Shown: positions 1 to 25,994 of the stretch, piece by piece
Layout: each line of letters opens with the position of its first letter
Numbering within the stretch: position 1 is the stretch's first letter
Source: Candidatus Woesearchaeota archaeon
GTDB taxonomy: Archaea > Nanobdellota > Nanobdellia > Woesearchaeales > BM511
Direction of reading: 5' to 3'
Length of the DNA stretch: 45,734 bases
Assembly: GCA_023266675.1 (NCBI GenBank)
Contig: JAHFPP010000002.1
Coordinates: 1 to 45,734 of the forward strand
Notes under the pieces: model-generated
What the model was told of the DNA's origin: nothing
Database searches by the model: none
Seen by the model: the letters and a program-made list of their open reading frames with translations, nothing else
Program-made: the position numbers and the translations under genes

Positions 1-2
1 AC

Positions 3-1352
3 CATCTTGATTATTCAATAGCTCAGATATTTGGTAAAGACCGGTTTGTTTCGCCATACATTCTCATCGCAATAACTTCATTTTTGGCGGTGTTCTCTAT
101 GTATCTTCTGCTAAGAAAATCATACGGCTTTCTCATTGCAGGCGCAGTTTCTTTCTGGCTAATCTTTGAAATGCGCGCAATAATGACTTATCTATGGGGG
201 CAAAGGCCGACAATTGCATCATTTACATATATCCCAATTATTATCTATGTATTGTACAAATATTCATATGAATTCTATGAGAATAAGAAAGAAAAAAACA
301 TTTATCTATACATACTTGTCGTGTTATCTTCATGCGCATTTCTAATACATCTTCAGGGATTTATACTTGTAATAATCTTCTCTGTAATTTTCCTGATATT
401 ATTATACATCAAATATAAAAAAGTTATAATTACAAAAACAAATTACAAACCATGGATTATATGCCTAGTAATAGGCATCATTCTATGCGCTCCTTTTTTG
501 GTATTATACACAGGCACCGGTGAAAGTGCGGAGCTTGGAAAATATAAAGCAGGCAGCGCATCGCTGCTATTTAAATGGTTGGATGTCCCTGACAACAAAT
601 TCAGCCTGAACCCTACTTTTTCCACGTATAAGGATAATTATATATCTTATCTGACAGTAGTATTCCTGCTTATCGGACTTTTATTTCTTTTCCTAAAAAG
701 AAGGATAAATGATTTGGTGATGATAAGCTTATTTGTAACATTATATTTAATCTTTCATCTGCACGTTTTTGGTTTGGCTCAGCTCTCCTACAGGATAGCA
801 AGGTATCTGATGGTTGAATCATACCTGTTTTGCTTTCTGATAATATTTGGAATAATAATAGTTGCAGATTTACTCAAAAAGCATGTTAAGATATCAAACT
901 TAAGCATGATTCTTGTCCTGATATTTTTAAGCATAGTAATCATGGTGCAGGGAAAGGTGGCGTACGATTCCTTAAATCAGGGATACGGTGGAGTTGCAAG
1001 AATGACGCAGTCGCAGTATGAATTTGCAGAATGGGCAGATTCAAACCTGCCAAAGGATGCAGTCATCAATGATTTTGGGACTTTAACATATGGAAAGCTT
1101 AGATTCATGCAGGCATCTGCGCACAGGCCATTTTTCTGGAATGATATTAACATAACTCACACATTTATTCCAATCTCAGGTGTTGGCAAGGATTTGATAC
1201 TCAAAACAACATACATCATGCTGGATTATTCAGATGTTATAGCAATTGGGGACAAACAGAATTTCAATGCATTGACACAGTTTGAAAAGCAATTATCAGG
1301 AGCAGCATTAGTATACAATAAAAATAACATAAGGGTGTATAAAATTGGATAA
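3..1352 (+). CDS. polytopic membrane protein with C-terminal soluble domain, 5'-truncated by the window edge (GT-C-like glycosyltransferase candidate)
   Basis: The frame of ORF 84..1352 stays open back to nt 3 (cat ctt gat tat tca ata gct cag ... with no stop), so the TTG at 84 is probably not the start. Many hydrophobic helices are followed by a roughly 130-aa hydrophilic tail. Lies in the glycosylation neighbourhood. Confidence 0.55.
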   Translation, partial: HLDYSIAQIFGKDRFVSPYILIAITSFLAVFSMYLLLRKSYGFLIAGAVSFWLIFEMRAIMTYLWGQRPTIASFTYIPIIIYVLYKYSYEFYENKKEKNIYLYILVVLSSCAFLIHLQGFILVIIFSVIFLILLYIKYKKVIITKTNYKPWIICLVIGIILCAPFLVLYTGTGESAELGKYKAGSASLLFKWLDVPDNKFSLNPTFSTYKDNYISYLTVVFLLIGLLFLFLKRRINDLVMISLFVTLYLIFHLHVFGLAQLSYRIARYLMVESYLFCFLIIFGIIIVADLLKKHVKISNLSMILVLIFLSIVIMVQGKVAYDSLNQGYGGVARMTQSQYEFAEWADSNLPKDAVINDFGTLTYGKLRFMQASAHRPFFWNDINITHTFIPISGVGKDLILKTTYIMLDYSDVIAIGDKQNFNALTQFEKQLSGAALVYNKNNIRVYKIG

Positions 1353-1680
1353 ACTTAAAATTACAACAAGAAATCTAGTGATAATTTGCACAGCGATTAT
1401 TTTTTTATTCTCATTTTTTCTGTTTGGTCTTACAGGACTTAGGACAATTGGGACAATTTTTGGAATGTTTTTGCCGGCTTATCTCATAATGAGCAACTTT
1501 GATATTGAGGAGGAAGAAAAAGTATTCTTTTCATTTTTTATAGGCTTAACAATATTTCCGCTTCTAGTATGGTACATGAACATATTTATTGCGTCACTTA
1601 CAGTTTCAATAATAATAACTTTCATACTTCTAAGTGCTGTTGGCTTATTTCTGAAATATAAAAATAAATTAAAAATTTAG
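1345..1680 (+). CDS. small membrane protein (about 3 TM), function unknown
   Basis: 111-aa hydrophobic ORF. The track start is TTG and overlaps the upstream stop by 8 nt, so the start is uncertain. Confidence 0.4.
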   Translation: MDKLKITTRNLVIICTAIIFLFSFFLFGLTGLRTIGTIFGMFLPAYLIMSNFDIEEEEKVFFSFFIGLTIFPLLVWYMNIFIASLTVSIIITFILLSAVGLFLKYKNKLKI

Positions 1681-2711
1681 AATATGCTCTTGTTATTATT
1701 TACGAATTCCACAAGCTTTGCAACTCCATCTTTTGGCGTTACCGTTGGCTTCCAGTTCAATTCTTTTTGCACCTTTGCTATGTTGGAGATATACACCTTC
1801 TGATCTGATGGTCTCCAGTCTGAATAGCTTATTTTCGGGCTTATCTTTGTTAAGTCCTTTATAGTCTCCACAAGTTCAAGAAGTGAAAGCGTGTTTTTTG
1901 AGCCGCCACCCATATTATATACGCCTGTTTTTATCTTTGATTCTAAAAATTGATTATACGCATTTATTAAGTCTTTTATGTAAAGCACATCCCTTACCTG
2001 TTTTCCATCGCCATAAATTGTTATTGGCTTCTTCAGTATTGATGCGATTGTAAACCATGCCACCCATCCCTGGTCTTCAACACCAAACTGCCTTGTTCCG
2101 TATATGCAGGACATTCTGAATATTCCTGCGGAAATGCCATAAAGACGAGAGTAATCCTGGCAGTATATGTCGCCTGTAAGCTTTGAACACCCGTATGGTG
2201 TGTGTTCGCATAAGTCTATTGGGAAATTTTCCGGAATCCCATTTTTATAATCATCCTCAAAATTATATCTTTTGCTTGTCTGTGTAATTCCAACATTATT
2301 TACGTTTTCCCCATACACTTTGTTTGTTGAGCAGTATACTATTTTTTTAACATTGTTTATTCTTGCTGATTCAAGCATATTGAATGTTCCAATCGCATTT
2401 GAACTGAAGTCTTCGCTTGGATTTGTAACAGATGTTGTGACTGCTGTCTGGGCGGCTGTGTGCACTATTGTGTCGCAATCAACGCTATACTTTTTCATAA
2501 GTTCAAAATCCCGGATATCTCCTTTTATCAATTTTACATTTTTGTATTTTTTAAGATAATTCCAGTTATATTCCTTGTTGGCTATGTTTTTGTTAAGCAG
2601 CTTGTCACGGCTTAAATTGTCAAGCACTACGACTTCATTTCCTTTCTCTGCATAAAATTCAGCCACATGGCTTCCTATAAATCCTGCACCACCAGTTACA
2701 AGTATCTTCAT
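1677..2711 (-). CDS. NAD-dependent sugar-nucleotide epimerase/dehydratase (extended SDR), resembling the CDP-paratose/tyvelose 2-epimerase branch
   Basis: Motifs [10 protein letters not shown] (Rossmann), DNLSR, STNKVYG, PYGCSK (YxxxK), DQGWVAWF, GDGKQVRDVL. 4-nt overlap with the upstream GT2. Confidence 0.8.
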   Translation of the reverse strand: MKILVTGGAGFIGSHVAEFYAEKGNEVVVLDNLSRDKLLNKNIANKEYNWNYLKKYKNVKLIKGDIRDFELMKKYSVDCDTIVHTAAQTAVTTSVTNPSEDFSSNAIGTFNMLESARINNVKKIVYCSTNKVYGENVNNVGITQTSKRYNFEDDYKNGIPENFPIDLCEHTPYGCSKLTGDIYCQDYSRLYGISAGIFRMSCIYGTRQFGVEDQGWVAWFTIASILKKPITIYGDGKQVRDVLYIKDLINAYNQFLESKIKTGVYNMGGGSKNTLSLLELVETIKDLTKISPKISYSDWRPSDQKVYISNIAKVQKELNWKPTVTPKDGVAKLVEFVNNNKSIF

Positions 2712-3433
2712 TTTTTCACCTTATCGCTTATTTTTTTAAATCTGTATCTTATTGATTCCTCAATTATTTTCATCAGGAATTTTGGTCCGTGAATCAATGC
2801 GAAGGACTTCATCTCTCCTCCTGCTCTTTTTCGTTCATGGCTTGGAATCTCACTGATTTTATATCCCATTTTCAGCGCATTTGATATGAGTTCAACCTCT
2901 ATCTCAAAAGTTTTTGATTTGTATTTGTTTTCAAGAAAGATGTCTTTTTTAAATGCTTTGAATCCGTTAAGCGCGTCAGTTAATTTTATCCAGAAAAACA
3001 GCCGAAAGCATCCTGTTAAAAAGTAATTTCCAAATCCTCTAACTATATTATACTCATCGCTTCCGCCAAGCATCCTTGATCCTATAACCATTCCGCAATT
3101 TTTGTTTTTTATGAGTGGTTCAACAAGTTTTTTAACATCCTCAATTTTATGTGAATAATCTGCGTCAAGCATAACAATAATGTCGCCTTTGGCGCTAGAG
3201 AAACCTTTTACAAGCGCGCTTCCTTTTCCATGCACTCCTGTGTTTTTTATTACTTTTACTCCATTTACTTTTTTTGCAATCTGGTTTGTTTTGTCTGTTG
3301 AACCGTCATCAACAACGATTATTTCATAACTGTGATTTTTGTCATTTTTAAGATATTTTTTGCAGTCGCTTAAAACCTTATTTATTGTCTCTTCCTCATT
3401 TCTTGCCGGTATAACAACTGATATTAGTTTCAT
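2708..3433 (-). CDS. GT2-family glycosyltransferase (polyprenyl-phosphate sugar synthase-like)
   Basis: Motifs VVIPARNEEETI, VVDDGSTDKT, MLDADYSH (DxD). Short catalytic-domain-only size of 241 aa. Confidence 0.85.
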   Translation of the reverse strand: MKLISVVIPARNEEETINKVLSDCKKYLKNDKNHSYEIIVVDDGSTDKTNQIAKKVNGVKVIKNTGVHGKGSALVKGFSSAKGDIIVMLDADYSHKIEDVKKLVEPLIKNKNCGMVIGSRMLGGSDEYNIVRGFGNYFLTGCFRLFFWIKLTDALNGFKAFKKDIFLENKYKSKTFEIEVELISNALKMGYKISEIPSHERKRAGGEMKSFALIHGPKFLMKIIEESIRYRFKKISDKVKK

Positions 3434-3810
3434 TTTACATCCTTCTTTTGTTTTTGCTTAAACTTTATCATGTTCACGCCTACACCAATCATAATAAATA
3501 TTGGCGGCAAAATCCATGATTGGCTTTTTATATGCCATCCAAGTACGCCAAAGTCATAAGTCAGTATTCCAAGTATAGCTGCAGAAAATAATGAGCCGAT
3601 TACAATTCTTTCACCTAGCGCATAGTCATCCTTCAAAAATAATGTGATGCTGTACCCTGGAAGTATGAATATATAAAACAATGATGCAACAAGATAAATA
3701 TTTCTGGATATGTCCGTTTTATAAAAAATGATCTCAAATAATATGCACAGTGAAACAAACAATATGCCGATTGCAAGAACTTCCTTTATATATCTGTTTT
3801 TATTGAGCAA
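3430..3810 (-). CDS. small 4-TM membrane protein, unknown function
   Basis: 126-aa hydrophobic ORF. Overlaps both neighbours (4 nt and 11 nt) inside the glycosylation operon. Confidence 0.5.
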   Translation of the reverse strand: MLNKNRYIKEVLAIGILFVSLCILFEIIFYKTDISRNIYLVASLFYIFILPGYSITLFLKDDYALGERIVIGSLFSAAILGILTYDFGVLGWHIKSQSWILPPIFIMIGVGVNMIKFKQKQKKDVK

Positions 3811-5431: not shown

Positions 5432-5434
5432 TTA

Positions 5435-5926
5435 TCATTTCAGCTCTTTTATCTTATTTATAATTCTTGTTGTTGAAAGCTTTCCATTCTTGTCTTTACT
5501 TTCCTTTATGAGGTGAAGTCTTGCGCCGATTTTCTTGACAGCTGGCGCCTCAACACAGTTTTCTCCGTACTGCGAGCCGTTGCAGTGAACACTTGGACGA
5601 ACAAGCGTGATTAATGGCACAGCTATCTCGTCTTCATCAAACAGCACTATGTAATCAACAAATCTTATCGCGTCAAGCATTTCAACACGGTACTCTTCAG
5701 ATATTATCGGCCTGTCTTTTCCCTTGTATGACTTTATTGACTTGTCAGAATTAAGTCCAACAATAAGCACGTCTCCCTGTGATTTTGATTCCTGCAGGTT
5801 TCTTATGTGTCCTGCGTGCAAAAGGTCAAAGCTTCCGTTAGTTGTAACTATGATCTTACCTTGTTTTCTTAATTTTTCTGCTATCGCTTTTATTTCCTTT
5901 TTTGTTTTAAGTTTTTGAAGTGTCAT
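5435..5926 (-). CDS. hldC: D-glycero-beta-D-manno-heptose 1-phosphate adenylyltransferase (RfaE domain II type, stand-alone)
   Basis: Cytidylyltransferase-fold motif TNGSFDLLHAGHIRNL. Collinear with the C-terminal half of E. coli HldE (LIVGLNSDKSIK...RP). Operon context with gmhA, gmhB, hldA and hldD. Confidence 0.75.
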   Translation of the reverse strand: MTLQKLKTKKEIKAIAEKLRKQGKIIVTTNGSFDLLHAGHIRNLQESKSQGDVLIVGLNSDKSIKSYKGKDRPIISEEYRVEMLDAIRFVDYIVLFDEDEIAVPLITLVRPSVHCNGSQYGENCVEAPAVKKIGARLHLIKESKDKNGKLSTTRIINKIKELK

Positions 5927-5952
5927 TTTTAACCATATCTCTCATATTTTAT

Positions 5953-6471
5953 TCACACAATTAATGAGGCTTCATATAAATCTTTTGAAGTGAATGTTGG
6001 TGTTGCATTAAATTCTCCGTCTTTGCCGGACTTTCCAGTCATTACAAGCACTGTCTTTAATCCCGCATTTTCTCCCATCTTTATATCGGCTGTCTTGTCG
6101 CCAATCATAAAGCTTTCTTTAACTTTTATCTTAAACTCTTTTGCAGCGTCAGTGATAAACTTTGTATTTGGCTTTCGGCATTCACAGTTGTCTTTTGCAA
6201 CATGAGGGCAATAGTAAGTTTTTGTAATTTTAATATTGTTGTCTGAAAAAACTTTCAGCATATGATTATTTAACTTATGGAAATCATCGTCTTTATAGTA
6301 TCCGCGTCCAATTCCTGACTGATTTGTGATTATGAAAATAAGGTAGCCTTTATTTTGAAAATTTTTCAATGCTTCAATCGTTTTTGGTATGAGTTCAAAA
6401 TCTTCAATCTTATAAACGTAATTTTTATCTATATTTACTGTGCCGTCTCTATCAAGAAATATAGCTTTCAT
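5953..6471 (-). CDS. gmhB: D,D-heptose 1,7-bisphosphate phosphatase (HAD-IIIA)
   Basis: Motifs FLDRDGTVN, ITNQSGIGRGY, YYCPH...CECRKPN (Zn-binding Cys pattern), IGDK. Confidence 0.85.
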   Translation of the reverse strand: MKAIFLDRDGTVNIDKNYVYKIEDFELIPKTIEALKNFQNKGYLIFIITNQSGIGRGYYKDDDFHKLNNHMLKVFSDNNIKITKTYYCPHVAKDNCECRKPNTKFITDAAKEFKIKVKESFMIGDKTADIKMGENAGLKTVLVMTGKSGKDGEFNATPTFTSKDLYEASLIV

Positions 6472-7435
6472 CTTCCTTAATGTCCTTAATCAATTCACTT
6501 GCGCTTACTGTTGCTGTTCCAAGTTTTTTGACTTTAATGCCACCCGCGTGGTTTGCTATTACTGCAGCTGTTTTCTGCTCAATATTTGACGCAACGGCAA
6601 GCGAGTAAACTGCTATTACTGTGTCGCCAGCTCCGCTCACATCATAAACCTCTTTGGCTTTTGTCGGAACAGAAAATACTTTGCTCTCTCCTTTTTCAAA
6701 CAGTGATATCCCGTGCTGCCCGCGTGTCATGAGCACGTTCGCATTTAGCTCTTTTTTGAGGTAATTGCCGACATCTTCAATGTTGCTGCTTTTTTCTTCA
6801 AGTGAAGCGCTCATTTCCCTTGCTTCTTTCTCATTTGGAGTTATTGCAAAGACATCCTTGTACCATTTTTTATGAAGTGGCTTTGTGTCAACTATTATTT
6901 TCACATTCAATTTTTTTAGTTCGTTTAGGAGTTCATGTGTTATCATGCCTTTCGCGTAGTCTGAAACTATTATTGCATCATATTTTGTTTTGCCTATCTT
7001 TTTTATAATCTCTTTTATGTGGTCAAAGTGTATGTATTCTTTATTTTCAAAATCCACTCTTATCATCTGCTGGCTTTTTGCAATAATCCTCTCCTTGACT
7101 ATTGTTCTTCTTTTTTTGTCAGTTATTAGATTTGAGACGTTTATTTTTCTTTTTTCAAGTTCAGTCAGTAGAATTTTCTTTGATTCGTCGTTTCCAACGA
7201 TTCCAATTAGTGAACATTTCGCATTGAAGCTTGTTATGTTTGATGCAACGTTTGCAGCGCCTCCTGGTACAAACCTCTGCTCTTTTACTTCAAGAACAGG
7301 GATTGGTGCTTCTGGTGAAATCCTGCTTACCTCGCCAAATGTGTATTTGTCAAGCATGACGTCACCTATGACTAGTATATTTAGTTTTTTGAAGTTTTCT
7401 ACAATGTTTTCAATCTTATCTTTTAGCCCTTTCAT
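6452..7435 (-). CDS. hldA: D-glycero-beta-D-manno-heptose 7-phosphate kinase (RfaE domain I type, PfkB family)
   Basis: Motifs VIGDVMLDKY, SRISPEAPIPV, PGGAANVA, VSDYAKG, VYDVSGAGDTV. Collinear with the N-terminal half of E. coli HldE. Confidence 0.9.
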   Translation of the reverse strand: MKGLKDKIENIVENFKKLNILVIGDVMLDKYTFGEVSRISPEAPIPVLEVKEQRFVPGGAANVASNITSFNAKCSLIGIVGNDESKKILLTELEKRKINVSNLITDKKRRTIVKERIIAKSQQMIRVDFENKEYIHFDHIKEIIKKIGKTKYDAIIVSDYAKGMITHELLNELKKLNVKIIVDTKPLHKKWYKDVFAITPNEKEAREMSASLEEKSSNIEDVGNYLKKELNANVLMTRGQHGISLFEKGESKVFSVPTKAKEVYDVSGAGDTVIAVYSLAVASNIEQKTAAVIANHAGGIKVKKLGTATVSASELIKDIKEDESYIS

Positions 7436-8322
7436 AGTCTTATTACCTTCATATAATCAGCTATTCCTTCTTTTAATGAGTATTTTGCTTTAAACTTTAA
7501 TTCCTTCTCTGCTTTTGTGGTGTCTGCGCACGTATCAACCTGATAATTCTTGCCGTAAGGATTCTTTATGTATTCAGGCTTTAAATCTTTTTTTAAGACT
7601 TCGTTTAAAGTTTTTACAAGCATGTTAAAGTCTTCGCCAACGCCTGTTCCAACATTATATATTCCCGATTTTGAAGTGAGCGCGCTTAGATTAGCAGTTA
7701 CGCAGTCTTTGACATATATGTGGTCCCTTTTTTGTTCTCCAAACTCAAATATTTTTGGACGGTGTCCTTCTTTCATCTGTTTTGCAAGATGGTATATCAT
7801 GCTTGAAGGCCGTCCTTTGTGCTCTTCGCCAGGTCCAAAAACGTTGAAGTATCTTAAACCGACTATGTGCATTTTGTCAAAATAATTCTCTGCGAGTGAG
7901 TCAATCATCAGTTTTGATTTTGCGTACGCGCTTTGCAAATCTTTTTTCTGATTTTCTTTCTGTGGTGAATGTCCGTTTCCGTATAAACTTGCGGATGATG
8001 CATAAATCAGTTTTGCCTTTGTGTCTATTGCAATTTTTAAAATATTGTCAAAACTGACAATGTTTTGCCTCAGCGTCTCAGTGTCATCACTAAATCTTGG
8101 GTCAGTGATTGCTGCCTCGTGAAATATTGCGTCAAATTTTTCGCTTAGTGTAAACGGTTTTGAAATATCAATGTTTAATGTTTTTCCTTTAAAGTTTTTC
8201 AGGTTATATTTTATGCCTGTGCTAAAATTATCAATCACTGTTACTTCGTCGCCTTCTTTTTCAAGCGCTAATGCAATATTTGAGCCTATAAAACCTGCGC
8301 CGCCAGTTACCAAGTATTTCAT
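7432..8322 (-). CDS. hldD: ADP-L-glycero-D-manno-heptose 6-epimerase
   Basis: Motifs [54 protein letters not shown], match E. coli RfaD/HldD. Start moved to the ATG at 8322, which forms an ATGA overlap with the gmhA stop. The ORF-track N-terminal extension (MSFAFVPHN...) runs into gmhA. Confidence 0.85.
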
Positions 8323-8924
8323 TTCATCATTCCTTCTTCTACAAGTTCGCATATTATGTGGTACGAAAGCAAATGACACTCCTGTATTCGCGGAGTATTT
8401 TTAGAATCCGAGTTAATGTTTAAGTCGCTTAGCTTTTTTACCTCTCCGCCGTTGTTGCCGGTGAGCGAGATATTTATTGTTCCAATCTCCTTTCCTTTCT
8501 TTAGCGCCTTTATGACGTTTTTTGAATTACCTGAAGTGGAAATCCCAATTAACACATCATCTTTTTTTGCAAGCGCTTCAACCTGCCGCTCAAAAAGCGT
8601 ATCATAGCTGTAGTCATTTGCCCAGGCAGTAATCACTGATGTATCCGTTGTTAGTGCGATTGCAGGAAGCCCTTTACGTTCAAGCTTGTATCTTCCAACA
8701 AGTTCGCCTGCTATGTGCTGAGCGTCAGCAGCTGAGCCGCCGTTTCCAAATATCAAAACCTTGTTTCCGTTTTTAAAACACTGAATTATTTTACTACTGA
8801 CTTTCTTTATATTGTCAATTTGACTGTGAAAATTCTTCTTTGCTTCAATGCTTTCATTGATTTGCTCTCCAATCCTTTTAGTTAAATCTTCCATTTTAAC
8901 CCCCATATCCTTGTAATTAGACAT
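8319..8924 (-). CDS. gmhA: phosphoheptose (sedoheptulose-7-phosphate) isomerase, SIS domain
   Basis: Motifs [35 protein letters not shown]. Collinear with E. coli GmhA. The true start may be the third ATG (MEDLTKR, 8894), which is preceded by GGGGT. Confidence 0.85.
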
Positions 8925-8985
8925 ATTCTTTTAAATTTTTTGCTTTTTTAATGATTTTGTATTCTTATTCATAATTAAATATTAA

Positions 8986-10119
8986 TTACAGTCCTATTTT
9001 CTCAATAGCATTCATCACGTCATCAACGCTGATTGCTTTCATGCATTTCTGGTAGTCATCGCTGTTTTTCTTGTAAAGGCAGTCTGGAACTTTTCCTTTG
9101 TGAACGTTTATGCACGGGCTAAGCTTGCAGGCGTTTTTCTTGTATATGCTGATGTTTCCTTCTCCAAACGGAGCAAACCTTTTGGGGAGATTTGGCCCAA
9201 AAAGACCGATTGTTTTTACGCCCATTGCAGCCGAGACATGCATTGGCCCTGTGTCATTGCTTACAACAAGACTGCATTTTTCTATCAAATAAAATGACTG
9301 CTTAAGCGTTGTTGTGCCAGCTGCGCATACAGATTTTTCTTTCATTAAACACTGTATCGACTCAATTATTTCTTTCTCGTTTGGTGCACCGATAAAAATT
9401 ATTTTAGCATTTTTTTTCTCAATCAGCATATCGGCAAGTTTTGCAAACTTTTCCTTTGGCCACATTCTGCACTTTGCAGACTCTGCAGCGCCAACAACAA
9501 TCCCAATAAGAACATCATTTTTTTTAATGCCGACTTTTTTAAGATAATTTTCAACAACTTTTTTATCGTTATCTGAAACATAAACTTTTTCTAATTTTAA
9601 ATTATCATGATTTCTATTATCTTCCAAATTTATAAGGTCCATAAATGTATAGACAACGTGCTGTTTGTCATTATATCTTATTTTCTTAGAGTAAAGACTC
9701 GCTCTTCTTCCATGGTCAAAGCCAGCGCTTTCCCGTCCGACAAACAGCGAGATTATCGCAGAAGTGTTAAGATACTCCTCCATGTCTATAACCAAATCAA
9801 ACTTTTTGTAATTTTTAAGAATGAAGCCAAGTATTGAGAAAAACCCTGTCTTTATCATGTAGATATTATCAATATAATTCAATCCTGAATAAACATCGTA
9901 TACCCTGTCAGTGCATAAAATATTTACTTTTGCACCTGTTTTATTTTTTAATAATTTTATCGCAGGCAAAGTGCATATTGTTTCGCCAATTCCCCACAAC
10001 TGTATTATTAAAATATTCTTTGGCTCTTTTACAGAATTCTTTCTTTTAAACACACTTAAAATATTGCATAAGGCGCCGCCAATATACTTATCAACATATT
10101 TTATGAAATCAATCTGCAT
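8986..10119 (-). CDS. glycosyltransferase family 9 (ADP-heptose-dependent heptosyltransferase-like)
   Basis: C-terminal motif VSNDTGPMHVSAAMGVKTIGLFGP typical of RfaC/RfaF-type GT9. The track start is TTG at 10131. The first ATG (MQIDF) at 10119 lies 1 nt after the upstream stop. Confidence 0.8.
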   Translation of the reverse strand: MQIDFIKYVDKYIGGALCNILSVFKRKNSVKEPKNILIIQLWGIGETICTLPAIKLLKNKTGAKVNILCTDRVYDVYSGLNYIDNIYMIKTGFFSILGFILKNYKKFDLVIDMEEYLNTSAIISLFVGRESAGFDHGRRASLYSKKIRYNDKQHVVYTFMDLINLEDNRNHDNLKLEKVYVSDNDKKVVENYLKKVGIKKNDVLIGIVVGAAESAKCRMWPKEKFAKLADMLIEKKNAKIIFIGAPNEKEIIESIQCLMKEKSVCAAGTTTLKQSFYLIEKCSLVVSNDTGPMHVSAAMGVKTIGLFGPNLPKRFAPFGEGNISIYKKNACKLSPCINVHKGKVPDCLYKKNSDDYQKCMKAISVDDVMNAIEKIGL

Positions 10120-10120
10120 T

Positions 10121-10477
10121 TTAAGCACCAAAGCCTATAAACGACACACCTACTATTATTGTTACTATCCCAACCCACTTCATTGCTGTCATCTTTTCTT
10201 TCAGTAAAATTTTTGAATAAATTACTACCCAAACATAATCAAGAGCTACAAGAGGATATAAAACTGATAAGTCACCTCCCTTTAATGCAGGTATGAAAAG
10301 AACCGTGCTAATTGCGTAAATCAATATTCCTATTATAAGTGGTCGATTCCTAAAAACATCCATCAGTTTTTTTCTCTCAATCTTTTCTGCACCTTTCTTA
10401 AGGTATATCGGACCAAATGCGCCTATAACACCCGCAATTATTACAAGAATTATTGCCCAAAGTTCAGTTTTCATCAT
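10121..10477 (-). CDS. small 4-TM DMT/EamA half-size transporter (ArnE/ArnF-like flippase subunit candidate)
   Basis: 118 aa with four hydrophobic helices. Paired with a paralogous neighbour via a 4-nt overlap. Confidence 0.55.
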   Translation of the reverse strand: MMKTELWAIILVIIAGVIGAFGPIYLKKGAEKIERKKLMDVFRNRPLIIGILIYAISTVLFIPALKGGDLSVLYPLVALDYVWVVIYSKILLKEKMTAMKWVGIVTIIVGVSFIGFGA

Positions 10478-10860
10478 ACACTCTCCGTGTATTTTAATAT
10501 TTCCTTGTCTTCTTCCCCAAAGGCTATGAAGGTTATTCCAATTATTATCAGGAATATTCCAATCCAGCGAAATACGTTTATCTCTTCGTTAAAATAGTAT
10601 TTTGAGCTTAAAGTCACCCATATATAACTTAATGTTATAATCGGATAAAGCGTACTGACTTCCCCATGCTTGAGCGCAATGATTACAAGAATCGAGCCTA
10701 TTCCATAAAAAACCATTCCAATCATTATCGGCCAGTTTGTGATTATTGAATTAATATTAAACTCAAGTGAGCCTGCGCCAATCTTATAAAACATCTGTGC
10801 AGCCGTTGTAAATACGGTGCATAAAATCATCATGGCAATTGCCCATTTTTTAGTTTTCAT
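10474..10860 (-). CDS. small 4-TM DMT/EamA half-size transporter (ArnE/ArnF-like flippase subunit candidate)
   Basis: 128 aa with the same topology as 10121..10477. ATGA-type overlaps on both sides. Confidence 0.55.
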   Translation of the reverse strand: MKTKKWAIAMMILCTVFTTAAQMFYKIGAGSLEFNINSIITNWPIMIGMVFYGIGSILVIIALKHGEVSTLYPIITLSYIWVTLSSKYYFNEEINVFRWIGIFLIIIGITFIAFGEEDKEILKYTESV

Positions 10861-11219
10861 TTCTTCTTCTTTCCCTCTTTTAATGCAAGATTGATTACTA
10901 TCTCTTCAATTCTTTTCTGGCTTTTACGAACTATCGTGTATGTATGAAAAAGCATTCCAATCACAAATATGAATCCAATGACGATGAAGAAATCCATTCT
11001 TCTGCTGAACTGAAGCACATCTGTGACTATGAAATCCAGAGATGTTGGAAAAACAACGAGTATTAAAAAAACGCTCCATGAACCAAACCAGAATATGCTT
11101 TCCTTTACAGTGAACTCTTTTCGCCTTTGGTGCAAAAATGTTATGTAAAACATGAACAGTGCAAATAAAATCCCTATTATCTGGACTCCTAGTATCTCAT
11201 TCATCTTCTTAGCCTCCAT
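10857..11219 (-). CDS. small membrane protein, DUF2304-like (typically partnered with a GT2)
   Basis: 120 aa. Three TM helices plus a charged C-terminal helix (RKSQKRIEEIV). Lies immediately downstream of a GT2 gene. Confidence 0.45.
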   Translation of the reverse strand: MEAKKMNEILGVQIIGILFALFMFYITFLHQRRKEFTVKESIFWFGSWSVFLILVVFPTSLDFIVTDVLQFSRRMDFFIVIGFIFVIGMLFHTYTIVRKSQKRIEEIVINLALKEGKKKK

Positions 11220-11857
11220 AAAAACATATTAATAACTATCTTTACACCATCAAGCGGCGTTGTGCCCTTATATTTATCATTATATATTGTTTCAATCGGT
11301 ATCTCCTTAAATTTTAACTTGGATTTTCCGATATTCGCAATCATTTCACTCTCAACGCTGTATCCTACTGATGCCCATTTGATTTTTTTGTATGCGTCGC
11401 TTGTAAACGCCCGAAATCCGCTTTGGGTGTCTTTTACGCTGATGTTATATAAAACTCTTGTTGTAAAATTTATAAAGCTGTTCCCAAATTTCAGTATGAA
11501 CGGCATATTCTTATCAAGCTCTCTGTAACCAAGAACGACGTCATATTTATCAAGCTCTTTTAAGAATCGCGGTATATCCTGCGGCTTATGCTGCCCGTCA
11601 GAATCTATGACAACTATTTTGTTTGCGCCTTTTTTTAGCGCATACTCGCATCCAGTTTTTAGCGCGGCTCCTTTTCCAAGATTTATTATGTGTCGAAGAA
11701 CAGTTACGCCGTAAGATTTTGAAGTCTCAAATGTTCTGTCTTTGGAGCCATCATCAACAACTATTATGTTGCTGTACTTCTTTTTTACTTTTGACAGAAC
11801 GTCTCCTATATTCTTGCATTCATTGTACGCGGGTATTATGATAAAAATATTATCCAT
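11201..11857 (-). CDS. GT2-family glycosyltransferase (polyprenyl-phosphate glycosyltransferase, ArnC/GtrB/Dpm1-like)
   Basis: Motifs IIIPAYNE, VVDDGSKDRT, VIDSDGQH (DxD). 218 aa. Confidence 0.85.
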   Translation of the reverse strand: MDNIFIIIPAYNECKNIGDVLSKVKKKYSNIIVVDDGSKDRTFETSKSYGVTVLRHIINLGKGAALKTGCEYALKKGANKIVVIDSDGQHKPQDIPRFLKELDKYDVVLGYRELDKNMPFILKFGNSFINFTTRVLYNISVKDTQSGFRAFTSDAYKKIKWASVGYSVESEMIANIGKSKLKFKEIPIETIYNDKYKGTTPLDGVKIVINMFLWRLRR

Positions 11858-11863
11858 AAAACC

Positions 11864-14812
11864 TCACTTAAGCTTTACTTTCCATGTTATTATTCGCTGG
11901 CCCGTGATGTCAGTTTTATCTGTGAACTTCTCAAACTTGTCAAGTCCGACACCATCATAGTAAAACAGTCTTGTGAACATGCTTGCTGAAAGTTCATAGT
12001 CCATCATAATTGTAGAATATGATTCCCCTTTCTTAATAAGAGCTACTCCAATAAATCTTCCGTTTTGCGCTGTAAGAACTTTTCCCTTGCTGTATTCTTT
12101 CACATTGAACGTTTCATTTTCGACATATACTAGCGTCTTTGGGTGGAGGTTTCCGTCTTTTGTAGGAACCCACGAATCATGGTCTGTTAGATTTATCATC
12201 ATCCCATTTGAGCATAAAAGGGTTTCATTGTCTTTTTTTGAGCATCCGCTTTCGCCTGACATGTAGCTTGGCCATGGCGCAATCCACTGGTCGCCGTCAG
12301 TTGAAGTGATTTCATAAAATGTTTTTTGCGCATCATTTTCTGATAAACCAAAATCATTCTTCAGTATCTCAATTCCTCTGTCTTTATTGTTTATTACATC
12401 ATTAAACATATGAGCTCTGCTAAAATTCCATATTCCAAAGTGCGCCCAGACGCCTGATTTTCCAACCATATCTTCTGATGTTATATAATAATGAGGAAGT
12501 ATAAGGTTGTCACAGTGCGTGTTTATTAGGATTTCTTCTATCTCTGAATTGCTAAAACCTTTTTTTGTTAAAATTTTTGACGCTGTCTTTTTGTCTTCTC
12601 TAATTATCTCATTAACTATATCTATCGCGTCAACAGTGTTTTTGTCGCTGTTGTTATCACGCAAATTAAGATACTTCTGTATGACATGCGGCGCGTTTTG
12701 CTGTCCGCAGTTTAGCATTCTAAGTATTCCTACAGCAGAATCCTGGTCTGATGTGAGCAGGCTTTTACCGACCCAGTGTATTCTTTCGCCCTGATCTGCG
12801 CCGTCAAAAGTAACACGTCTTTCGCTTATCGCAACAAACCAGTGTCCAAAATCCCACCAAGATGTTATCATGCCGTCTGTCGCATTGTCCTTTATTGCTG
12901 TTAGCGAATCATACCACGCGTCATTCATCATTGTAACGTCGTTTTCCGCTATTGAATATGAATTCTTCACCTGGCTTACTAGAAGAAGAGAGAATAACAA
13001 TGCCATAAGCACATATGAAACTGTTTTGTTAAGCTCAATTTCTTTATGTAAAAGGTTGCTTAAGTAATTGTAGATTATTCCAACGCCGGCGCCTGTTGCT
13101 ATTGCAAATGCAGGAACCATTAGTATTCCAAATCTTATTCCTTTTGTGAATCCGTAAGCTGTTCCAACAAACCATATTATGATAAGCACTGCAAGCTTTA
13201 TGTCAACATCTTCATTCTCTTTGTAATAAATTATTTTTAGTATACCTGCTATTATTGGTATGATTATTACTATTATGAAAAATACCGGGTTGTTCAACTG
13301 GTCTTTGTAGTAAAGGAATCCGAGGTAATACATCATTGACAGTCCAACATATATATTGTTTATCTTGATGTTTCTTTTTGTGTTGTAAAGCAATAATACT
13401 ATGCCGCTTAATGCAAGGAAGAACAGTATTGGTCCGCCCATCTGGCTGATTATTGCTGATAAAGCTGTTGCATTGTTTTCTGCAACAGTTGTCAAAACGT
13501 TTGGCCATATGCTGCTTACACCGACGCTTTTTAATGTCATAACCCCTAAAGGCCCTCTAATTGTTGCAGTGAATGCAGATGCGCCGTTGATGAAGGCGAC
13601 TATAATAAATGAGACTGCAACAAATATTACTGTAACAATTGATATCTCTTTTAGCTGTCTTGCTATTTTTTCCTTATTGTATACTTTGATGAATAAAAGG
13701 TAAGCTACGTAGCATCCTATCATTACAGCTATGAAGTCAAATGTGTACCACCATCCTATCCATGCATAACTGAATAGTCCGACAAATACAGCAGCTAAAA
13801 CTGAGTATATCACCTGTTTTTTGACTTCTTTTGATTCAAACGCCTCAAGGAACATCCACATTATCATCAGTGGGAAAAATATGTTGTACGGGTCTGTGTC
13901 GGCAACGCCGCCAACAGTTCTTGACAAAAGCGAAGGGTTGACACCGATAATCATTGCGGCAAAGAATCCGCCGATGTTTCCGCCGACTTTTCTTCCTATG
14001 AAAAATGCAGGTATTATTGAGAGTCCAATCACAATTACTGACATTAAAAAAACAACAGATGTTAGCTGAACATTATTATTAAAGAATTGCGCAAACTTGT
14101 AAAGGTATACTTCAAAATACATGTGTATTGTTCCTGCGCCAAGGTCGCTTGGAAGTCCCTGCCTTCCGTTTCTTAGCATGTTCATGCTAACGCCGTTAAC
14201 ATAATCAGTACCAAAGTGCCCGTATTTTAAGTAATTCTTCACTTCGCCGTACCAGACGTATGTATCTATATCAGAAAGGTAGATGTACTCTTTTCCGTTT
14301 ACTGTGTATTTGAAATTTGATTTGAAATTCTGAGAGAGCTGCGCTGTCTGCTGCGCTATGACATCCTTGTTGTCAGTTTTAAACTTTTGAAGCTGAGTTT
14401 CTACAAGCGCGTTCTTGTTGTCTGTTGGCAGATTAGGATACTGCTGGTCAACGCTTGTTCGTATTTGGTTTCTGTAATAATTGTCAACTGTAGACTGAGC
14501 CCAATTGTCAGTCATCGGTAAGTCAGCTGGAATCATTCTTATATAAGTTGAGAATAATAATGCGATAAGTATTAATGTAAACGGAATTAAAAGTTTCTTT
14601 TTGCTTTTAAAAAATTCAACTGTCGGCGCAAAGCTTATATCAATGTCTTCTTCGCTTTTTTCTTCTTTATGAGATGTTTTTAACTCTTTTTTTTCGTCAC
14701 TGTCTTTAAACATTCCGCTGAAGAACTTTGTTATAGGCTTAAAATCAATCTGCAAATCATCGTCATCTGAACTTTGCTTTGTATTTTTAACAGTAGCATT
14801 ATGTTTTTTCAT
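11864..14812 (-). CDS. aglB: archaeal oligosaccharyltransferase (STT3 family)
   Basis: Long multi-TM N-terminal region followed by a soluble domain. Catalytic motif WWDFGHW (WWDYG variant) in ...MITSWWDFGHWFVAI.... The track start at 14821 is GTG. The first ATG (MKKHNA) is at 14812. Confidence 0.9.
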   Translation of the reverse strand: MKKHNATVKNTKQSSDDDDLQIDFKPITKFFSGMFKDSDEKKELKTSHKEEKSEEDIDISFAPTVEFFKSKKKLLIPFTLILIALLFSTYIRMIPADLPMTDNWAQSTVDNYYRNQIRTSVDQQYPNLPTDNKNALVETQLQKFKTDNKDVIAQQTAQLSQNFKSNFKYTVNGKEYIYLSDIDTYVWYGEVKNYLKYGHFGTDYVNGVSMNMLRNGRQGLPSDLGAGTIHMYFEVYLYKFAQFFNNNVQLTSVVFLMSVIVIGLSIIPAFFIGRKVGGNIGGFFAAMIIGVNPSLLSRTVGGVADTDPYNIFFPLMIMWMFLEAFESKEVKKQVIYSVLAAVFVGLFSYAWIGWWYTFDFIAVMIGCYVAYLLFIKVYNKEKIARQLKEISIVTVIFVAVSFIIVAFINGASAFTATIRGPLGVMTLKSVGVSSIWPNVLTTVAENNATALSAIISQMGGPILFFLALSGIVLLLYNTKRNIKINNIYVGLSMMYYLGFLYYKDQLNNPVFFIIVIIIPIIAGILKIIYYKENEDVDIKLAVLIIIWFVGTAYGFTKGIRFGILMVPAFAIATGAGVGIIYNYLSNLLHKEIELNKTVSYVLMALLFSLLLVSQVKNSYSIAENDVTMMNDAWYDSLTAIKDNATDGMITSWWDFGHWFVAISERRVTFDGADQGERIHWVGKSLLTSDQDSAVGILRMLNCGQQNAPHVIQKYLNLRDNNSDKNTVDAIDIVNEIIREDKKTASKILTKKGFSNSEIEEILINTHCDNLILPHYYITSEDMVGKSGVWAHFGIWNFSRAHMFNDVINNKDRGIEILKNDFGLSENDAQKTFYEITSTDGDQWIAPWPSYMSGESGCSKKDNETLLCSNGMMINLTDHDSWVPTKDGNLHPKTLVYVENETFNVKEYSKGKVLTAQNGRFIGVALIKKGESYSTIMMDYELSASMFTRLFYYDGVGLDKFEKFTDKTDITGQRIITWKVKLK

Positions 14813-14918
14813 GAAGTACACTCCCGAACTAATATATTTTCTTAAAATCTATAATTCTTTATAAAGATTTCTAATAATCTTACTCTATTAATATATACTC
14901 ATCTGTCTTTATTCATAT

Positions 14919-18125: not shown

Positions 18126-18173
18126 ATATTTATTTAACTTATAATTGAATTAAAATCAGCAAGAGTGGATAAA

Positions 18174-25859: not shown

Positions 25860-25994
25860 ATGCCTGAAATAAGAATAGATATGAATGACGCTTTTTTAGA
25901 TAAAAAACTGCGAATCTACATGGCTGAAAATGACATTAAATCCAAAGAGAAAGCTATACTCAAAATACTAAACGAGAGATTAAACAAAAAATGA
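25860..25994 (+). CDS. 44-aa ribbon-helix-helix-like small protein (copy 2, tandem paralogue)
   Basis: Translation MPEIRIDMNDAFLDKKLRIYMAENDIKSKEKAILKILNERLNKK. 55 nt identical to copy 1 (25897-25951 versus 25736-25790). Its stop overlaps the next ATG (ATGA at 25991-25994). Confidence 0.55.
   Translation: MPEIRIDMNDAFLDKKLRIYMAENDIKSKEKAILKILNERLNKK

Follow-up and report, generated by a model that had tools for sequence, protein, structure and literature searches.

A Woesearchaeal operon joining heptose biosynthesis genes and a GT9 glycosyltransferase to AglB: a candidate pathway for heptose on archaeal surface proteins

The window analysed here, a stretch of 45,734 nucleotides, carries what may be a Woesearchaeal surface-glycosylation operon in which heptose would be put on a sugar linked to dolichol phosphate (Dol-P) by GT9 and the glycan would be moved to Asn by AglB. 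We give this pathway about an even chance of being right in that form. These archaea probably decorate their surface proteins with heptose, a "bacterial" sugar, because related genomes have the same layout. The heptose genes and the GT9 gene occupy bases 5435–10119 on the minus strand. All six (gmhA, hldD, hldA, gmhB, hldC and GT9) lay where the original prediction had placed them, and their identities were upheld by Pfam, NCBIfam and solved-structure matches. They belong to one co-directional operon of about 14 kb (bases 1677–15989, minus strand), read as a single operon because genes overlap by 4 to 20 nt. The order is geranylgeranyl-reductase homologue, AglB, GT2 and DUF2304, ArnE/F-like pair, GT9 and the heptose genes, followed by a GT-C enzyme, a small membrane protein, a second GT2 and an SDR enzyme (Table 1). 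GT9 and gmhA are separated by 61 nt, and the junctions in the heptose block are -4, -4, -20, +26 and +3 nt; these overlaps, and the separate genes for kinase and nucleotidyltransferase, were as predicted.

Table 1. Features of the glycosylation operon and its neighbour in the window.
Feature	Coordinates	Strand	Evidence
Geranylgeranyl-reductase-family flavoprotein, candidate dolichol/polyprenol reductase; first in conserved block	14919..15989	-	TIGR02032
AglB/STT3 oligosaccharyltransferase	11864..14821	-	PF02516, archaeo_STT3, WWDFG motif
GT2a, soluble polyprenyl-phosphate glycosyltransferase (PpgS/GacI/AglJ/Dol-P-Man synthase-like)	11201..11857	-	PF00535
DUF2304 small membrane protein, GacJ/Rv3632-type GT2 partner	10857..11219	-	PF10066
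EamA/DMT half-size pair, ArnE/ArnF-like putative flippase	10474-10860 + 10121-10477	-	EamA
GT9 glycosyltransferase, 377 aa, putative heptosyltransferase, non-LPS acceptor	8986..10119	-	PF01075
GmhA, sedoheptulose-7-phosphate isomerase, SIS domain	8319..8924	-	TIGR00441
HldD, NDP-glycero-manno-heptose 6-epimerase	7432..8322	-	TIGR02197, PDB matches
HldA, D-glycero-beta-D-manno-heptose-7-phosphate 1-kinase, PfkB family	6452..7435	-	TIGR02198
GmhB, heptose 1,7-bisphosphate 7-phosphatase, HAD-IIIA	5953..6471	-	NF006506
HldC, heptose-1-phosphate nucleotidyltransferase	5435..5926	-	TIGR02199, PDB 5X9Q
GT-C-fold membrane glycosyltransferase, 543 aa	3800..5431	-	AF2 + Foldseek
126-aa protein, four hydrophobic segments, GtrA-like function possible	3430..3810	-	Hydrophobic segments
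GT2b, second polyprenyl-phosphate sugar synthase-like GT2	2708..3433	-	PF00535
SDR nucleotide-sugar epimerase/dehydratase, last in co-directional block	1677..2711	-	PF01370
DUF6541 membrane protein, second GT-C-like gene, runs off window 5' end	1..1352	+	PF20176

For each of the six genes, a heptose-pathway model was the top family match, and the catalytic residues were kept. GmhA and GmhB scored above their NCBIfam cut-offs (TIGR00441, 217.3 against 209.45; PRK08942/NF006506, 183.7 against 178), and the GmhB translation contains a DRDGT motif along with a CPH...CEC loop. HldA matched PfkB (2e-36, Pfam) and rfaE_dom_I/TIGR02198 (343.7, cut-off 345), with ribokinase as the runner-up NCBIfam family at a score of 91; its best solved structure was Burkholderia HldA 4E84 (4e-52). 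HldD, for which the ATG giving a 4-nt overlap with gmhA was taken as the start, scored 264.8 with heptose_epim/TIGR02197 (cut-off 274.6) and matched the ADP-heptose 6-epimerases of H. pylori (3SXP, 2e-52) and E. coli (1EQ2, 3e-38). It keeps the Ser, YxxxK and second-base Lys ('EHKG'), and these intact catalytic residues agree with the epimerase activity claimed for it. HldC matched CTP_transf_like (1e-17, Pfam), rfaE_dom_II/TIGR02199 as best NCBIfam family (145.4 bits, below the cut-off of 181.5) and, among solved structures, Burkholderia HldC 5X9Q (2e-20).

A grouping with the GDP-heptose pathway, raised beforehand as an objection, was checked. A PfkB-type kinase and a cytidylyltransferase-type transferase mark the route, as judged from sequence, as the one to beta-anomer NDP-heptose; the GDP-heptose route would use a GHMP kinase. 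HldC has HAGH and STT motifs, with a 4-residue insertion ahead of STT that is absent from relatives; the (F/L)XXGXSTT motif of HldC has been linked to nucleotide choice (Tang et al. 2024). Of the proposed ADP-heptose pathway, the heptose route held, while the HldC sequence does not tell ADP from CDP or UDP, and we infer ADP. In some related loci GmhA or HldD is replaced by unrelated proteins, and therefore the sugar may differ among lineages.

GT9 matched PF01075 at 9e-39 (Pfam) and scored below every LPS heptosyltransferase equivalog cut-off in NCBIfam (HepI, HepII and HepIII). Its predicted model (AF2 pLDDT 88) gave Foldseek TM scores of 0.75–0.81 with 3TOV, 0.68–0.77 with WaaF, about 0.63–0.73 with WaaC and 0.55 with TibC. 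In this model, the fold is nearest to 3TOV, WaaF and WaaC, with lipid-anchored acceptors, and not to the protein-heptosylating TibC. E46, R218, N288-D289, H294 and a C-terminal Cys4 motif (C-x4-C-x10-C-x11-C) are invariant; R218 aligned with WaaC K192 and N288-D289 with WaaC D261. This GT9 falls in a large clade of archaeal GT9s.

The counterparts of the WaaC residues that contact ADP-heptose are conserved in GT9, which argues against transfer of a non-heptose sugar, with NDP-heptose serving another transferase or staying a free metabolite. CAZy family GT9 also holds non-heptosyl transferases, and this, the scores under all heptosyltransferase cut-offs and the 9 of 31 related loci without a heptose gene in the fetched flank (mostly short contigs) would fit such a reading. 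However, in loci with at least 8 kb of flank, HldA was present within 10 kb in 13/14 and HldC in 12/14. Furthermore, Pfam shows GT9 to be the operon's one soluble GT-B transferase. Transfer of another sugar therefore seems unlikely.

TibC is an iron-binding GT9-like enzyme with a Cys-based metal site. If the invariant Cys4 motif were likewise a metal finger, GT9 could heptosylate proteins directly in the cytoplasm like TibC/AAH, and the TibC match to the GT9 model had a probability of 1.0 (Foldseek, 8–9% identity). However, no TibC sequence match was found at E up to 1, its TM score lies below those of 3TOV and WaaF, and no autotransporter-like substrate gene is adjacent. The Cys4 motif is also found in many bacterial GT9s (Planctomycetota, Omnitrophota and Poribacteria) and is therefore not specific to protein heptosylation. 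Direct action on proteins is quite improbable.

The operon setting around AglB, and the GT-C gene downstream, had been part of the original prediction and were both confirmed. AglB matched STT3 (PF02516, 7e-38, Pfam), with archaeo_STT3 as the best NCBIfam model,; its WWDFG motif lies at residue 655, and it has 11 hydrophobic segments. Translation of AglB could also start at the ATG at 14812. The reductase scored 176.6 with TIGR02032, above the NCBIfam cut-off of 158.8; in Haloferax, a homologue carries out reduction of the Dol-P omega isoprene (work cited in PMC11407970). GT2a matched PF00535 (2e-25, Pfam) and the PpgS and AglJ models (7e-41 and 9e-31, respectively, both below the NCBIfam cut-off), and its best PDB match was Pyrococcus Dol-P-Man synthase 5MLZ (3e-14), followed by GtrB and ArnC. 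The neighbouring membrane protein matched PF10066 at 1e-19 (Pfam). Pairs of GT2 and DUF2304 proteins make polyprenyl-monophosphate HexNAc, and GacJ and Rv3632 each bind to their GT2 and raise its activity. The half-size pair, with a 4-nt gene overlap, matched EamA at 5e-7 and 6e-10 (Pfam), and ArnE and ArnF were the best NCBIfam models, below cut-off.

The 543-aa GT-C protein itself had no Pfam match; in its family of 319 representatives, DUF6541 was matched by 13/75 members and PMT_2 by 7/75. It has about 10 transmembrane segments and a C-terminal alpha/beta domain, and D43 is invariant in the family. Its AF2 model (pLDDT 95) matched PglB, STT3, AglB, DPY19 and ArnT in Foldseek with E values of 7e-9 to 2e-5. 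The 126-aa protein had no family match in Pfam or NCBIfam, and its homologue adjoins the GT-C homologue in one related locus (L005). GT2b matched PF00535 (6e-32, Pfam) and the AglJ model (9e-36, below the NCBIfam cut-off), and the SDR enzyme matched PF01370 (8e-50, Pfam), with dTDP-glucose 4,6-dehydratase and GalE as best NCBIfam models, below cut-off. The DUF6541 protein, whose frame is open from base 3, matched profile positions 207–540 of PF20176 at 1e-7. A 1576-aa surface protein in the window has 75 sequons against 34.8±4.8 expected (z = 8.3) and is, from its sequence, a candidate AglB substrate.

Synteny was counted in 31 related loci with GT9 identity of at least 43%, and denominators vary among genes. 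The order reductase–AglB–GT2–DUF2304–GT9 is almost constant: AglB was present in 19/19, DUF2304 in 25/28, GT2 immediately preceding DUF2304 and GT9 in 24/27, and the reductase upstream of AglB in 15/17. The order was kept even at 32% GT9 identity (L041). An acceptor other than Kdo2-lipid A, probably dolichol-linked, had been proposed, and the AglB–GT2–DUF2304–GT9 synteny and the WaaF/WaaC-like GT9 model both fit it.

The heptose pathway and GT9 might instead build another polyprenol- or lipid-anchored glycan (a lipoglycan, glycolipid or secreted polysaccharide) that AglB does not transfer, with GT2/DUF2304 merely supplying a Dol-P-sugar donor that is flipped by the ArnE/F-like pair and used by the GT-C enzyme. 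The characterised pairs GacI/GacJ and PpgS/Rv3632 feed a flippase and a GT-C enzyme, exactly the set found in the window. The nearest bacterial-labelled GT9 relatives lie in ABC-transporter-dependent polysaccharide clusters that include sulfotransferases, and Methanocaldococcus indicus, a cultured archaeon with a complete genome and a GT9 homologue at 43% identity, carries a larger glycan cluster with three GT9 genes and no AglB within 10 kb. However, AglB is itself a GT-C enzyme and the invariant neighbour, whereas across related loci neither the flippase pair nor the remaining GT-C genes are conserved beside GT9; the pair holds this position in the window only, and among the fetched loci only L038 has one, placed elsewhere. 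No polysaccharide export genes (Wzx, Wzy or ABC-2) were found in the operon by Pfam, which also speaks against a separate glycan. We consider this explanation possible but doubtful.

The contig is archaeal, as predicted, and belongs to Woesearchaeota (DPANN). The long STT3/AglB protein best matches an archaeal model, synteny over more than 20 kb is shared with Woesearchaeal contigs of 228–571 kb (including 228 and 292 kb), and the named sequences among the top 120 GT9 homologues are all Woesearchaeota or Nanoarchaeota. The window also encodes a 96-nt tRNA-Trp gene with a D-loop insertion of about 25 nt, of the archaeal intron type, and pilin-like class-III-like signal peptides. The relatives are all metagenome-assembled with automatic labels, several implausibly 'Methanosarcinales' and three close GT9s 'Bacteroidales', and the contig could in principle be bacterial (e.g. 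CPR) or chimeric, with the archaeal context a binning artefact. Against the features above and the homologue in cultured M. indicus, this is extremely unlikely. The suggestion that the genes look horizontally acquired found no support as a recent acquisition: G+C of the heptose segment (0.35–0.38) is inside the window range, the cluster is kept across many Woesearchaeal genomes whose GT9 identity falls as low as 32%, and the GT9s form an archaeal clade of their own.

In the AglB-dependent pathway that we favour, the GT2/DUF2304 pair beside AglB would load Dol-P with a hexose or HexNAc as linking sugar, a step that matches how Euryarchaeota start Dol-P-based N-glycans. GT9, with a GT-B fold and Glu for the catalytic Asp of WaaC, would add heptose to this lipid-linked sugar on the cytoplasmic face; this putative acceptor is suggested by gene order. 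The short lipid-linked glycan would then be flipped, with the ArnE/F-like pair as the candidate flippase in this genome, and AglB would move it to Asn-X-Ser/Thr sites of surface proteins. The downstream GT-C enzyme and the second GT2 probably add a further sugar from their own Dol-P carrier outside the cell. Several points weigh against this scheme. By analogy with every characterised case, the GT2/DUF2304 product would serve an extracytoplasmic GT-C enzyme as donor and would not be elongated as an acceptor, and the ArnE/F-like pair and GT-C gene fit this donor-only alternative just as well. At the sequence level, the scores of GT9, HldA, HldC and HldD below NCBIfam equivalog cut-offs, the Glu base and the HldC insertion may also point away from it.

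Archaeal heptose glycans had been called essentially unexplored, which was overstated. Functional archaeal NDP-heptose enzymes were reported in a study across kingdoms (Tang et al. 2024), ADP-heptose clusters are present in glycan islands of Methanococcus maripaludis KA1 and JJ, and heptose is part of a Thermoplasma acidophilum N-glycan. Synthesis of NDP-heptose, placement of its genes in glycan islands and, in one case, heptose on an N-glycan are therefore already on record for archaea. In the literature searched, we found no report of the conserved AglB–GT9 module, of GT9 or an ADP-heptose donor tied to archaeal Agl pathways, or, in earlier archaeal heptose work, of a constant GT9–AglB neighbourhood or of a DPANN module conserved across the order.

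The bacterial NDP-heptose pathway uses these five enzyme families in an identical order of reactions, and Burkholderia HldA and HldC (4E84 and 5X9Q) are likewise separate genes. Unlike in bacteria, the host here is an archaeon and lacks LPS. Of the five enzymes, three (HldA, HldC and HldD) are just under the equivalog cut-offs, and HldC differs by the insertion at the (F/L)XXGXSTT motif. WaaC (HepI), WaaF (HepII) and Veillonella 3TOV have in common with GT9 the Pfam GT9 domain, a GT-B fold (TM 0.63–0.81), the donor motif ND-x-G-x-x-H and, where WaaC has K192, a basic residue. Their acceptor at the cytoplasmic face is an anionic glycolipid anchored in the membrane, and this is the reaction type proposed for GT9. 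However, identity to these three is only 17–20%, WaaC Asp13 is replaced by Glu, at its N-terminus GT9 has an additional helix, about 30 residues long, in which K7, D10, G14 and C18 are invariant, and Kdo2-lipid A is impossible as its acceptor. The bacterial autotransporter heptosyltransferases TibC and AAH use ADP-heptose and share the GT-B fold, but they act on proteins, their sequence similarity to GT9 is undetectable and their structural likeness is far below that of WaaF and WaaC.

In S. pyogenes GacI/GacJ/GacK/GacL and mycobacterial PpgS/Rv3632/Rv3779, a GT2 polyprenyl-phosphate HexNAc synthase adjoins its DUF2304 partner, with a flippase and a GT-C transferase in the same locus, as here. 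In contrast to both, the invariant GT-C neighbour is AglB and GT9 comes after the pair, the flippase candidate is ArnE/F-like, not Wzx-like, and the lipid would be Dol-P. In Euryarchaeal N-glycosylation, GT2 enzymes charge Dol-P, soluble transferases elongate the glycan, and AglB takes Dol-P-linked donors and transfers them (PMC11407970). AglB with WWDxG, an AglJ-like GT2 and a homologue of the dolichol-saturating reductase are all present in the locus, where GT9 differs in being the only elongating cytoplasmic transferase.

The original prediction placed five genes for nucleotide-activated heptose synthesis and a GT9 glycosyltransferase gene between positions 5435 and 10119, and Pfam and NCBIfam searches recovered all of them, on the minus strand and tightly packed (see table). 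The successive gene junctions along the heptose genes were -4, -4, -20, +26 and +3 nt. GmhA, a SIS-domain sedoheptulose-7-phosphate isomerase, passed the cut-off of TIGR00441 (217.3 bits against 209.45), and GmhB, of the HAD-IIIA type, passed those of NF006506 (183.7 against 178) and TIGR00213 (161.2 against 149.6); its translation contained the DRDGT motif and the Cys/His loop. HldA, a PfkB-family kinase, scored 343.7 bits with TIGR02198 (rfaE domain I), 1.3 short of the cut-off of 345, with the runner-up family at 91 bits, and its sole PDB match at E <=1e-10 was Burkholderia HldA (4E84, 4e-52). HldD scored 264.8 bits with TIGR02197 (heptose_epim, cut-off 274.6) and matched the ADP-heptose 6-epimerases of H. 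pylori (3SXP, 2e-52) and E. coli (1EQ2, 3e-38). Alignments to both structures showed that the catalytic Ser (YASSA), YxxxK (YxxSK) and the second-base Lys (E-H-K-G) were kept; as in the earlier expectation, an HldD with intact residues implies the L,D-heptose epimer for the genome of the window.

HldC belonged to the CTP_transf_like family; its top NCBIfam model was rfaE_dom_II (1e-42, 145 bits against a cut-off of 181.5), and Burkholderia HldC 5X9Q was matched at 2e-20 in the PDB search. Its specificity motif read K-N-G-K-L-STT, with a 4-residue insertion, while relatives showed the canonical L-x-x-G-x-STT. Because of this insertion, ATP versus CTP/UTP could not be called from the sequence. 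Assignment of the nucleotide by the published 'STTR5' motif rule for CDP/UDP promiscuity of HldC-type enzymes was given up, since a commentary on the rule leaves the motif position ambiguous and the motif in the window carries the insertion. A PfkB-type kinase and a cytidylyltransferase-type transferase indicated the beta-anomer NDP-heptose route, and they ruled out the GDP-heptose route (alpha-anomer, GHMP kinase HddA). The gene set is therefore a predicted pathway from sedoheptulose 7-phosphate to NDP-heptose, and the individual gene functions are well supported. Tang et al. 2024 are reported to have shown this conversion for other archaeal enzymes.

Features of the window: coordinates, strand and supporting matches
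Feature	Coordinates	Strand	Match or position
Co-directional block	15989 down to 1677	-	Gene order from reductase to SDR
Geranylgeranyl-reductase-family protein	14919-15989	-	First gene of block; family match
AglB	11864-14821	-	After reductase; STT3 PF02516 7e-38; WWDFG (WWDxG motif) at residue 655
Soluble GT2 (GT2a)	11201-11857	-	After AglB; PF00535; top NCBIfam model PpgS; also AglJ, Dol-P-Man synthase
DUF2304 membrane protein	10857-11219	-	After GT2a; PF10066
Two half-size EamA proteins	10121-10860	-	Between DUF2304 and GT9; top models ArnE and ArnF
GT9	8986-10119	-	Pfam/NCBIfam; followed by the five heptose genes
GmhA	8319-8924	-	Pfam/NCBIfam
HldD	7432-8322	-	Pfam/NCBIfam
HldA	6452-7435	-	Pfam/NCBIfam
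GmhB	5953-6471	-	Pfam/NCBIfam
HldC	5435-5926	-	Pfam/NCBIfam
543-aa membrane protein	3800-5431	-	After heptose genes; predicted GT-C
126-aa protein		-	After 543-aa gene; four hydrophobic segments
Second GT2		-	After 126-aa gene; family match
SDR epimerase/dehydratase	to 1677	-	Last of block; family match
DUF6541 gene	runs past window start	+	Opposite strand; Pfam
947-aa PKD protein	18165-21008		
Two paralogues (544 and 513 aa)	25991-29169	+	
tRNA-Trp(CCA)	29572-29667	-	96 nt; Rfam 43.4 bits
1576-aa protein	31740-36470	-	Class-III-like signal
Three small pilin-like proteins	36448-37814	-	After 1576-aa gene
Low-G+C stretch	39000-42500		G+C 0.27-0.30
DMP19-like protein	39660-40286		Within low-G+C stretch
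Mrr-type restriction endonuclease domain protein	40621-41841		Within low-G+C stretch
S-adenosylhomocysteine hydrolase	41838-43262	-	474 aa; TIGR00936 (416 positions), 631 bits

The genes of GT2a and the DUF2304 protein adjoined and overlapped by 19 nt, the layout of a GacI/GacJ-type pair. A TTTATAAA box preceded the AglB start by about 45 nt; the sigma-70 promoter and terminator scan was set aside because the host is archaeal. The 543-aa protein had no Pfam match of its own, and a word-indexed search returned one relative, while an exhaustive HMMER search returned 319 representatives, a family large enough for structure prediction; some of its members matched DUF6541 or PMT_2. The AlphaFold model (pLDDT 95) matched PglB, STT3, AglB, DPY19 and ArnT in Foldseek with probability 1.0, and the multi-span GT-C fold was accompanied by a conserved acid in the first external loop, the invariant D43. 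The model and the family matches agree with the earlier suggestion of a GT-C-like protein and indicate that this is a GT-C enzyme.

GT9 matched PF01075 with 133.7 bits (9e-39) against a cut-off of 22. Among solved structures, its sequence matched the Veillonella GT9 3TOV (2e-21) and the LPS core heptosyltransferases WaaF (1e-12) and WaaC (5e-4). The AlphaFold model (pLDDT 88) adopted a GT-B fold, with Foldseek TM values of 0.75-0.81 for 3TOV, 0.68-0.77 for WaaF and about 0.63-0.73 for WaaC. At the position of the WaaC catalytic Asp (D13), the Woesearchaeal clade had an invariant Glu46 (G-I-G-E-T) and bacterial relatives had Asp or Ser; the change from Asp to Glu is conservative, so catalytic activity of GT9 remains plausible. 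R218, aligned with WaaC K192, and N288-D289-T-G-P-M-H294, aligned with V-D-T-G-L-S-H of the WaaC D261 motif, were invariant. The clade also had an additional N-terminal helix with invariant K7, D10, G14 and C18. The best heptosyltransferase equivalog was heptsyl_trn_II (102.6 bits against a cut-off of 134.6), all other models scored lower, and GT9 passed no HepI, HepII or HepIII cut-off in NCBIfam; relatives are labelled 'glycosyltransferase family 9' in public databases. A non-heptose donor, which these scores would allow, is the less likely reading for a gene adjoining NDP-heptose genes. We know of no archaeon with Kdo2-lipid A.

An invariant C-terminal C-x4-C-x10-C-x11-C motif in the clade raised the TibC-like autotransporter heptosyltransferases as a model, in which GT9 would heptosylate protein directly. 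This reading is less likely. No sequence match to TibC was found at E up to 1 in the solved-structure search, and the fold match was weaker (TM about 0.55, 8-9% identity, ranked under WaaC and WaaF). Bacterial GT9 relatives have the Cys motif as well, so it is no sign of a function peculiar to the archaeal clade.

Loci of related GT9 genes were scanned with one genome per species, giving 80 loci, and neighbours were counted in the 31 loci whose GT9 was at least 43% identical, each count covering only loci with enough flank. DUF2304 lay directly upstream of GT9 in 25 of 28 loci, GT2 directly upstream in 24 of 27, and AglB within 8 kb in all 19; a reductase homologue was present in 15 of 17. The heptose genes varied more: HldA 13/14, HldC 12/14, GmhB 10/14, HldD 9/14 and GmhA 7/14. 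The gene order was kept even in a locus whose GT9 was only 32% identical (L041), and the ArnE/F-like pair between DUF2304 and GT9 was unique to the window among the fetched loci. This synteny with AglB, GT2 and DUF2304 supports the reading that the GT9 product would serve as lipid-linked donor for AglB. The closest relative carried, on contig JAHWIK010000033.1, a second GT9 (L081) that was 30% identical and about 18 kb from the first (L005). It lay near homologues of the DUF6541 and 111-aa genes of the window, and by analogy a second GT9 may lie just past the window's start.

Two proteins occupied places of heptose genes in relatives. At the place of hldD, flanked by gmhA and hldA, at least eight loci (L001, 13549-14445; also L006, L009, L010, L011, L016, L021 and L067) encoded instead a 298-aa protein whose domain resembles deoxyhypusine synthase (Pfam DS, 6e-9). 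Its sequence was not similar to HldD and matched nothing in the PDB. Homologues 49-52% identical occurred in GT9 loci of two Omnitrophota bacteria (L070 and L072), adjoining hldA by coordinates in L070, and this occurrence links the protein to heptose metabolism in both domains. A 122-aa Cupin_2 protein, resembling lyxose and mannose-6-phosphate isomerases, was found in ten loci with 61-79% identity (L004, L005 at 10477-10845, L014, L015, L022, L027, L029, L032, L042 and L045). Its gene headed the heptose genes, with a 4-nt overlap with hldD in L005. SIS-type GmhA was absent from the fetched flanks of the six cupin loci examined (L005, L014, L015, L022, L029 and L032), and the cupin may be a non-orthologous sedoheptulose-7-phosphate isomerase standing in for GmhA.

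The relatives of GT9 numbered over 800, and the best 120 had lengths of about 378 aa and shared 51-59% identity with it; the named ones among these 120 were Candidatus Woesearchaeota or Nanoarchaeota. An exact-sequence look-up of GT9 matched no public contig. Two long Woesearchaeal contigs (228 and 292 kb) carried the same neighbourhood, and the 228-kb contig also had DUF192 and a giant surface protein, matching the far side of the window. The tRNA-Trp(CCA) contained about 25 extra D-loop nucleotides forming their own hairpin, which looks like an archaeal-type short intron at a non-canonical position. ARAGORN found no tRNA in the window; as Rfam detected this one, the negative result reflects a limitation of the tool. 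Proteins with class-III (pilin-like) signal peptides were present. The possibility raised in the original prediction that the contig is bacterial, for example CPR, which would take the heptose genes out of an archaeal setting, is very unlikely in view of the archaeal relatives, the synteny, the tRNA insertion and the class-III signals.

In a neighbour-joining GT9 tree, a rough distance tree whose composition is biased because its sequences were gathered by patterns including the Cys motif, Woesearchaeal sequences formed their own clade with Altiarchaeota and Methanocaldococcus indicus, and Planctomycetota, Omnitrophota and Poribacteria fell outside the archaeal clade. Three GT9s from 'Bacteroidales' MAGs (L034-L036, 39-41% identical) nested within it; their genes followed a GT2 in ABC-2-transporter-dependent polysaccharide clusters with sulfotransferases, and the nesting could reflect inter-domain transfer or misbinning. 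The complete genome of the cultured methanogen M. indicus SL43 (L033, 1163900-1184988) encoded a GT9 43% identical, in a cluster of hldC-hldA-gmhB, three GT9 genes, hldD, GT4 and GT2 genes and a sulfotransferase. Just upstream of that cluster were a HEPN/nucleotidyltransferase pair and a fragment of an IS240-type transposase. The gene set of the window had been described as looking horizontally acquired. We found no support for a recent event: G+C was unremarkable, synteny was deep, and the cluster is old in the lineage.

Elsewhere in the window, a mobile or defence islet is a possible reading of the low-G+C stretch. The two paralogues had nearly identical N-termini, and the first, of 544 aa, carried a Peptidase_S74 (endosialidase chaperone) domain, which occurs in phage tail fibres.

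GT2 and DUF2304 proteins act together in GacI/GacJ and PpgS/Rv3632, which yield polyprenyl-monophosphate HexNAc; the small protein stimulates the GT2, and the product is flipped and then consumed by a GT-C enzyme. In Euryarchaeota, N-glycans are built on dolichol monophosphate: a GT2 charges the linking sugar, soluble transferases elongate and AglB transfers, and, as cited in PMC11407970, a geranylgeranyl-reductase homologue saturates the dolichol. The Woesearchaeal module differs from the former in that its invariant GT-C neighbour is AglB, and from the latter in that GT9 is its sole cytoplasmic elongating transferase. On these two grounds we propose that GT2/DUF2304 would charge Dol-P, that GT9 would add heptose supplied by the adjoining NDP-heptose genes, that the short glycan would be flipped, in the window perhaps by the ArnE/F-like pair, and that AglB would link it to asparagine; outside the cell, the GT-C enzyme and the second GT2 would provide a further sugar. 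The acceptor of GT9 and the order of steps, taken from gene order and analogy, stand at about an even chance. The main rival is that GT2/DUF2304 serves only to supply the other GT-C enzyme with its donor, as in the GacI/GacJ and PpgS/Rv3632 systems, and that GT9 acts on a different lipid-anchored glycan; the constant neighbour of the module is, however, AglB.

Our tentative reading, to which we give slightly under an even chance, is that a minimal and ancient N-glycosylation module operates in Woesearchaeota and, judged by homology, also in some Altiarchaeota, Micrarchaeota and Methanocaldococcus. The module would comprise a dolichol reductase, AglB, GT9 and a Dol-P sugar synthase paired with a DUF2304 protein. 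A Glu-base GT9 would heptosylate a Dol-P-linked sugar, and surface proteins would as a result carry a short N-glycan capped with heptose. A plausible candidate substrate of AglB is the 1576-aa pilin-signal protein, in which 75 N-X-S/T sequons were counted and shuffled sequences gave 34.8±4.8 (z = 8.3), while the 947-aa PKD protein was sequon-depleted (4 against 22 expected, z = -4.5).

DPANN archaea are tiny and mostly host-attached, and their surfaces mediate host contact; to our knowledge, almost nothing is known of their glycans. A conserved AglB, a single cytoplasmic transferase and a full sugar pathway together give a concrete and cheaply testable prediction, a heptose-containing N-glycan on dolichol phosphate, for which a cultured relative offers a direct test. 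If true, it would be the first assigned GT9 function in Archaea, would give the family a new class of acceptor and would extend GT9 chemistry past LPS and autotransporters. It would likewise be the first assigned cellular use of archaeal NDP-heptose and give a physiological role to the enzymes reported in 2024. The ArnE/F-like pair is a candidate archaeal flippase for dolichol-phosphate-linked sugars; we know of no archaeal protein identified as a flippase of lipid-linked sugars. Should the prediction prove wrong, the locus would remain a well-annotated instance of a known pathway from an unusual host.

A GT9 fixed beside AglB, an order-wide DPANN module and an archaeal GT9 acceptor were not described in the literature searched, and a search for a GT9 or heptose glycan of DPANN archaea or Woesearchaeota returned nothing relevant. 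Archaeal NDP-heptose enzymes are reported to be functional (Tang et al. 2024), ADP-heptose clusters have been noted in the glycan islands of Methanococcus maripaludis, and the Thermoplasma N-glycan contains a heptose. The chemistry and the enzyme families are thus familiar, and the context and the proposed acceptor are new.
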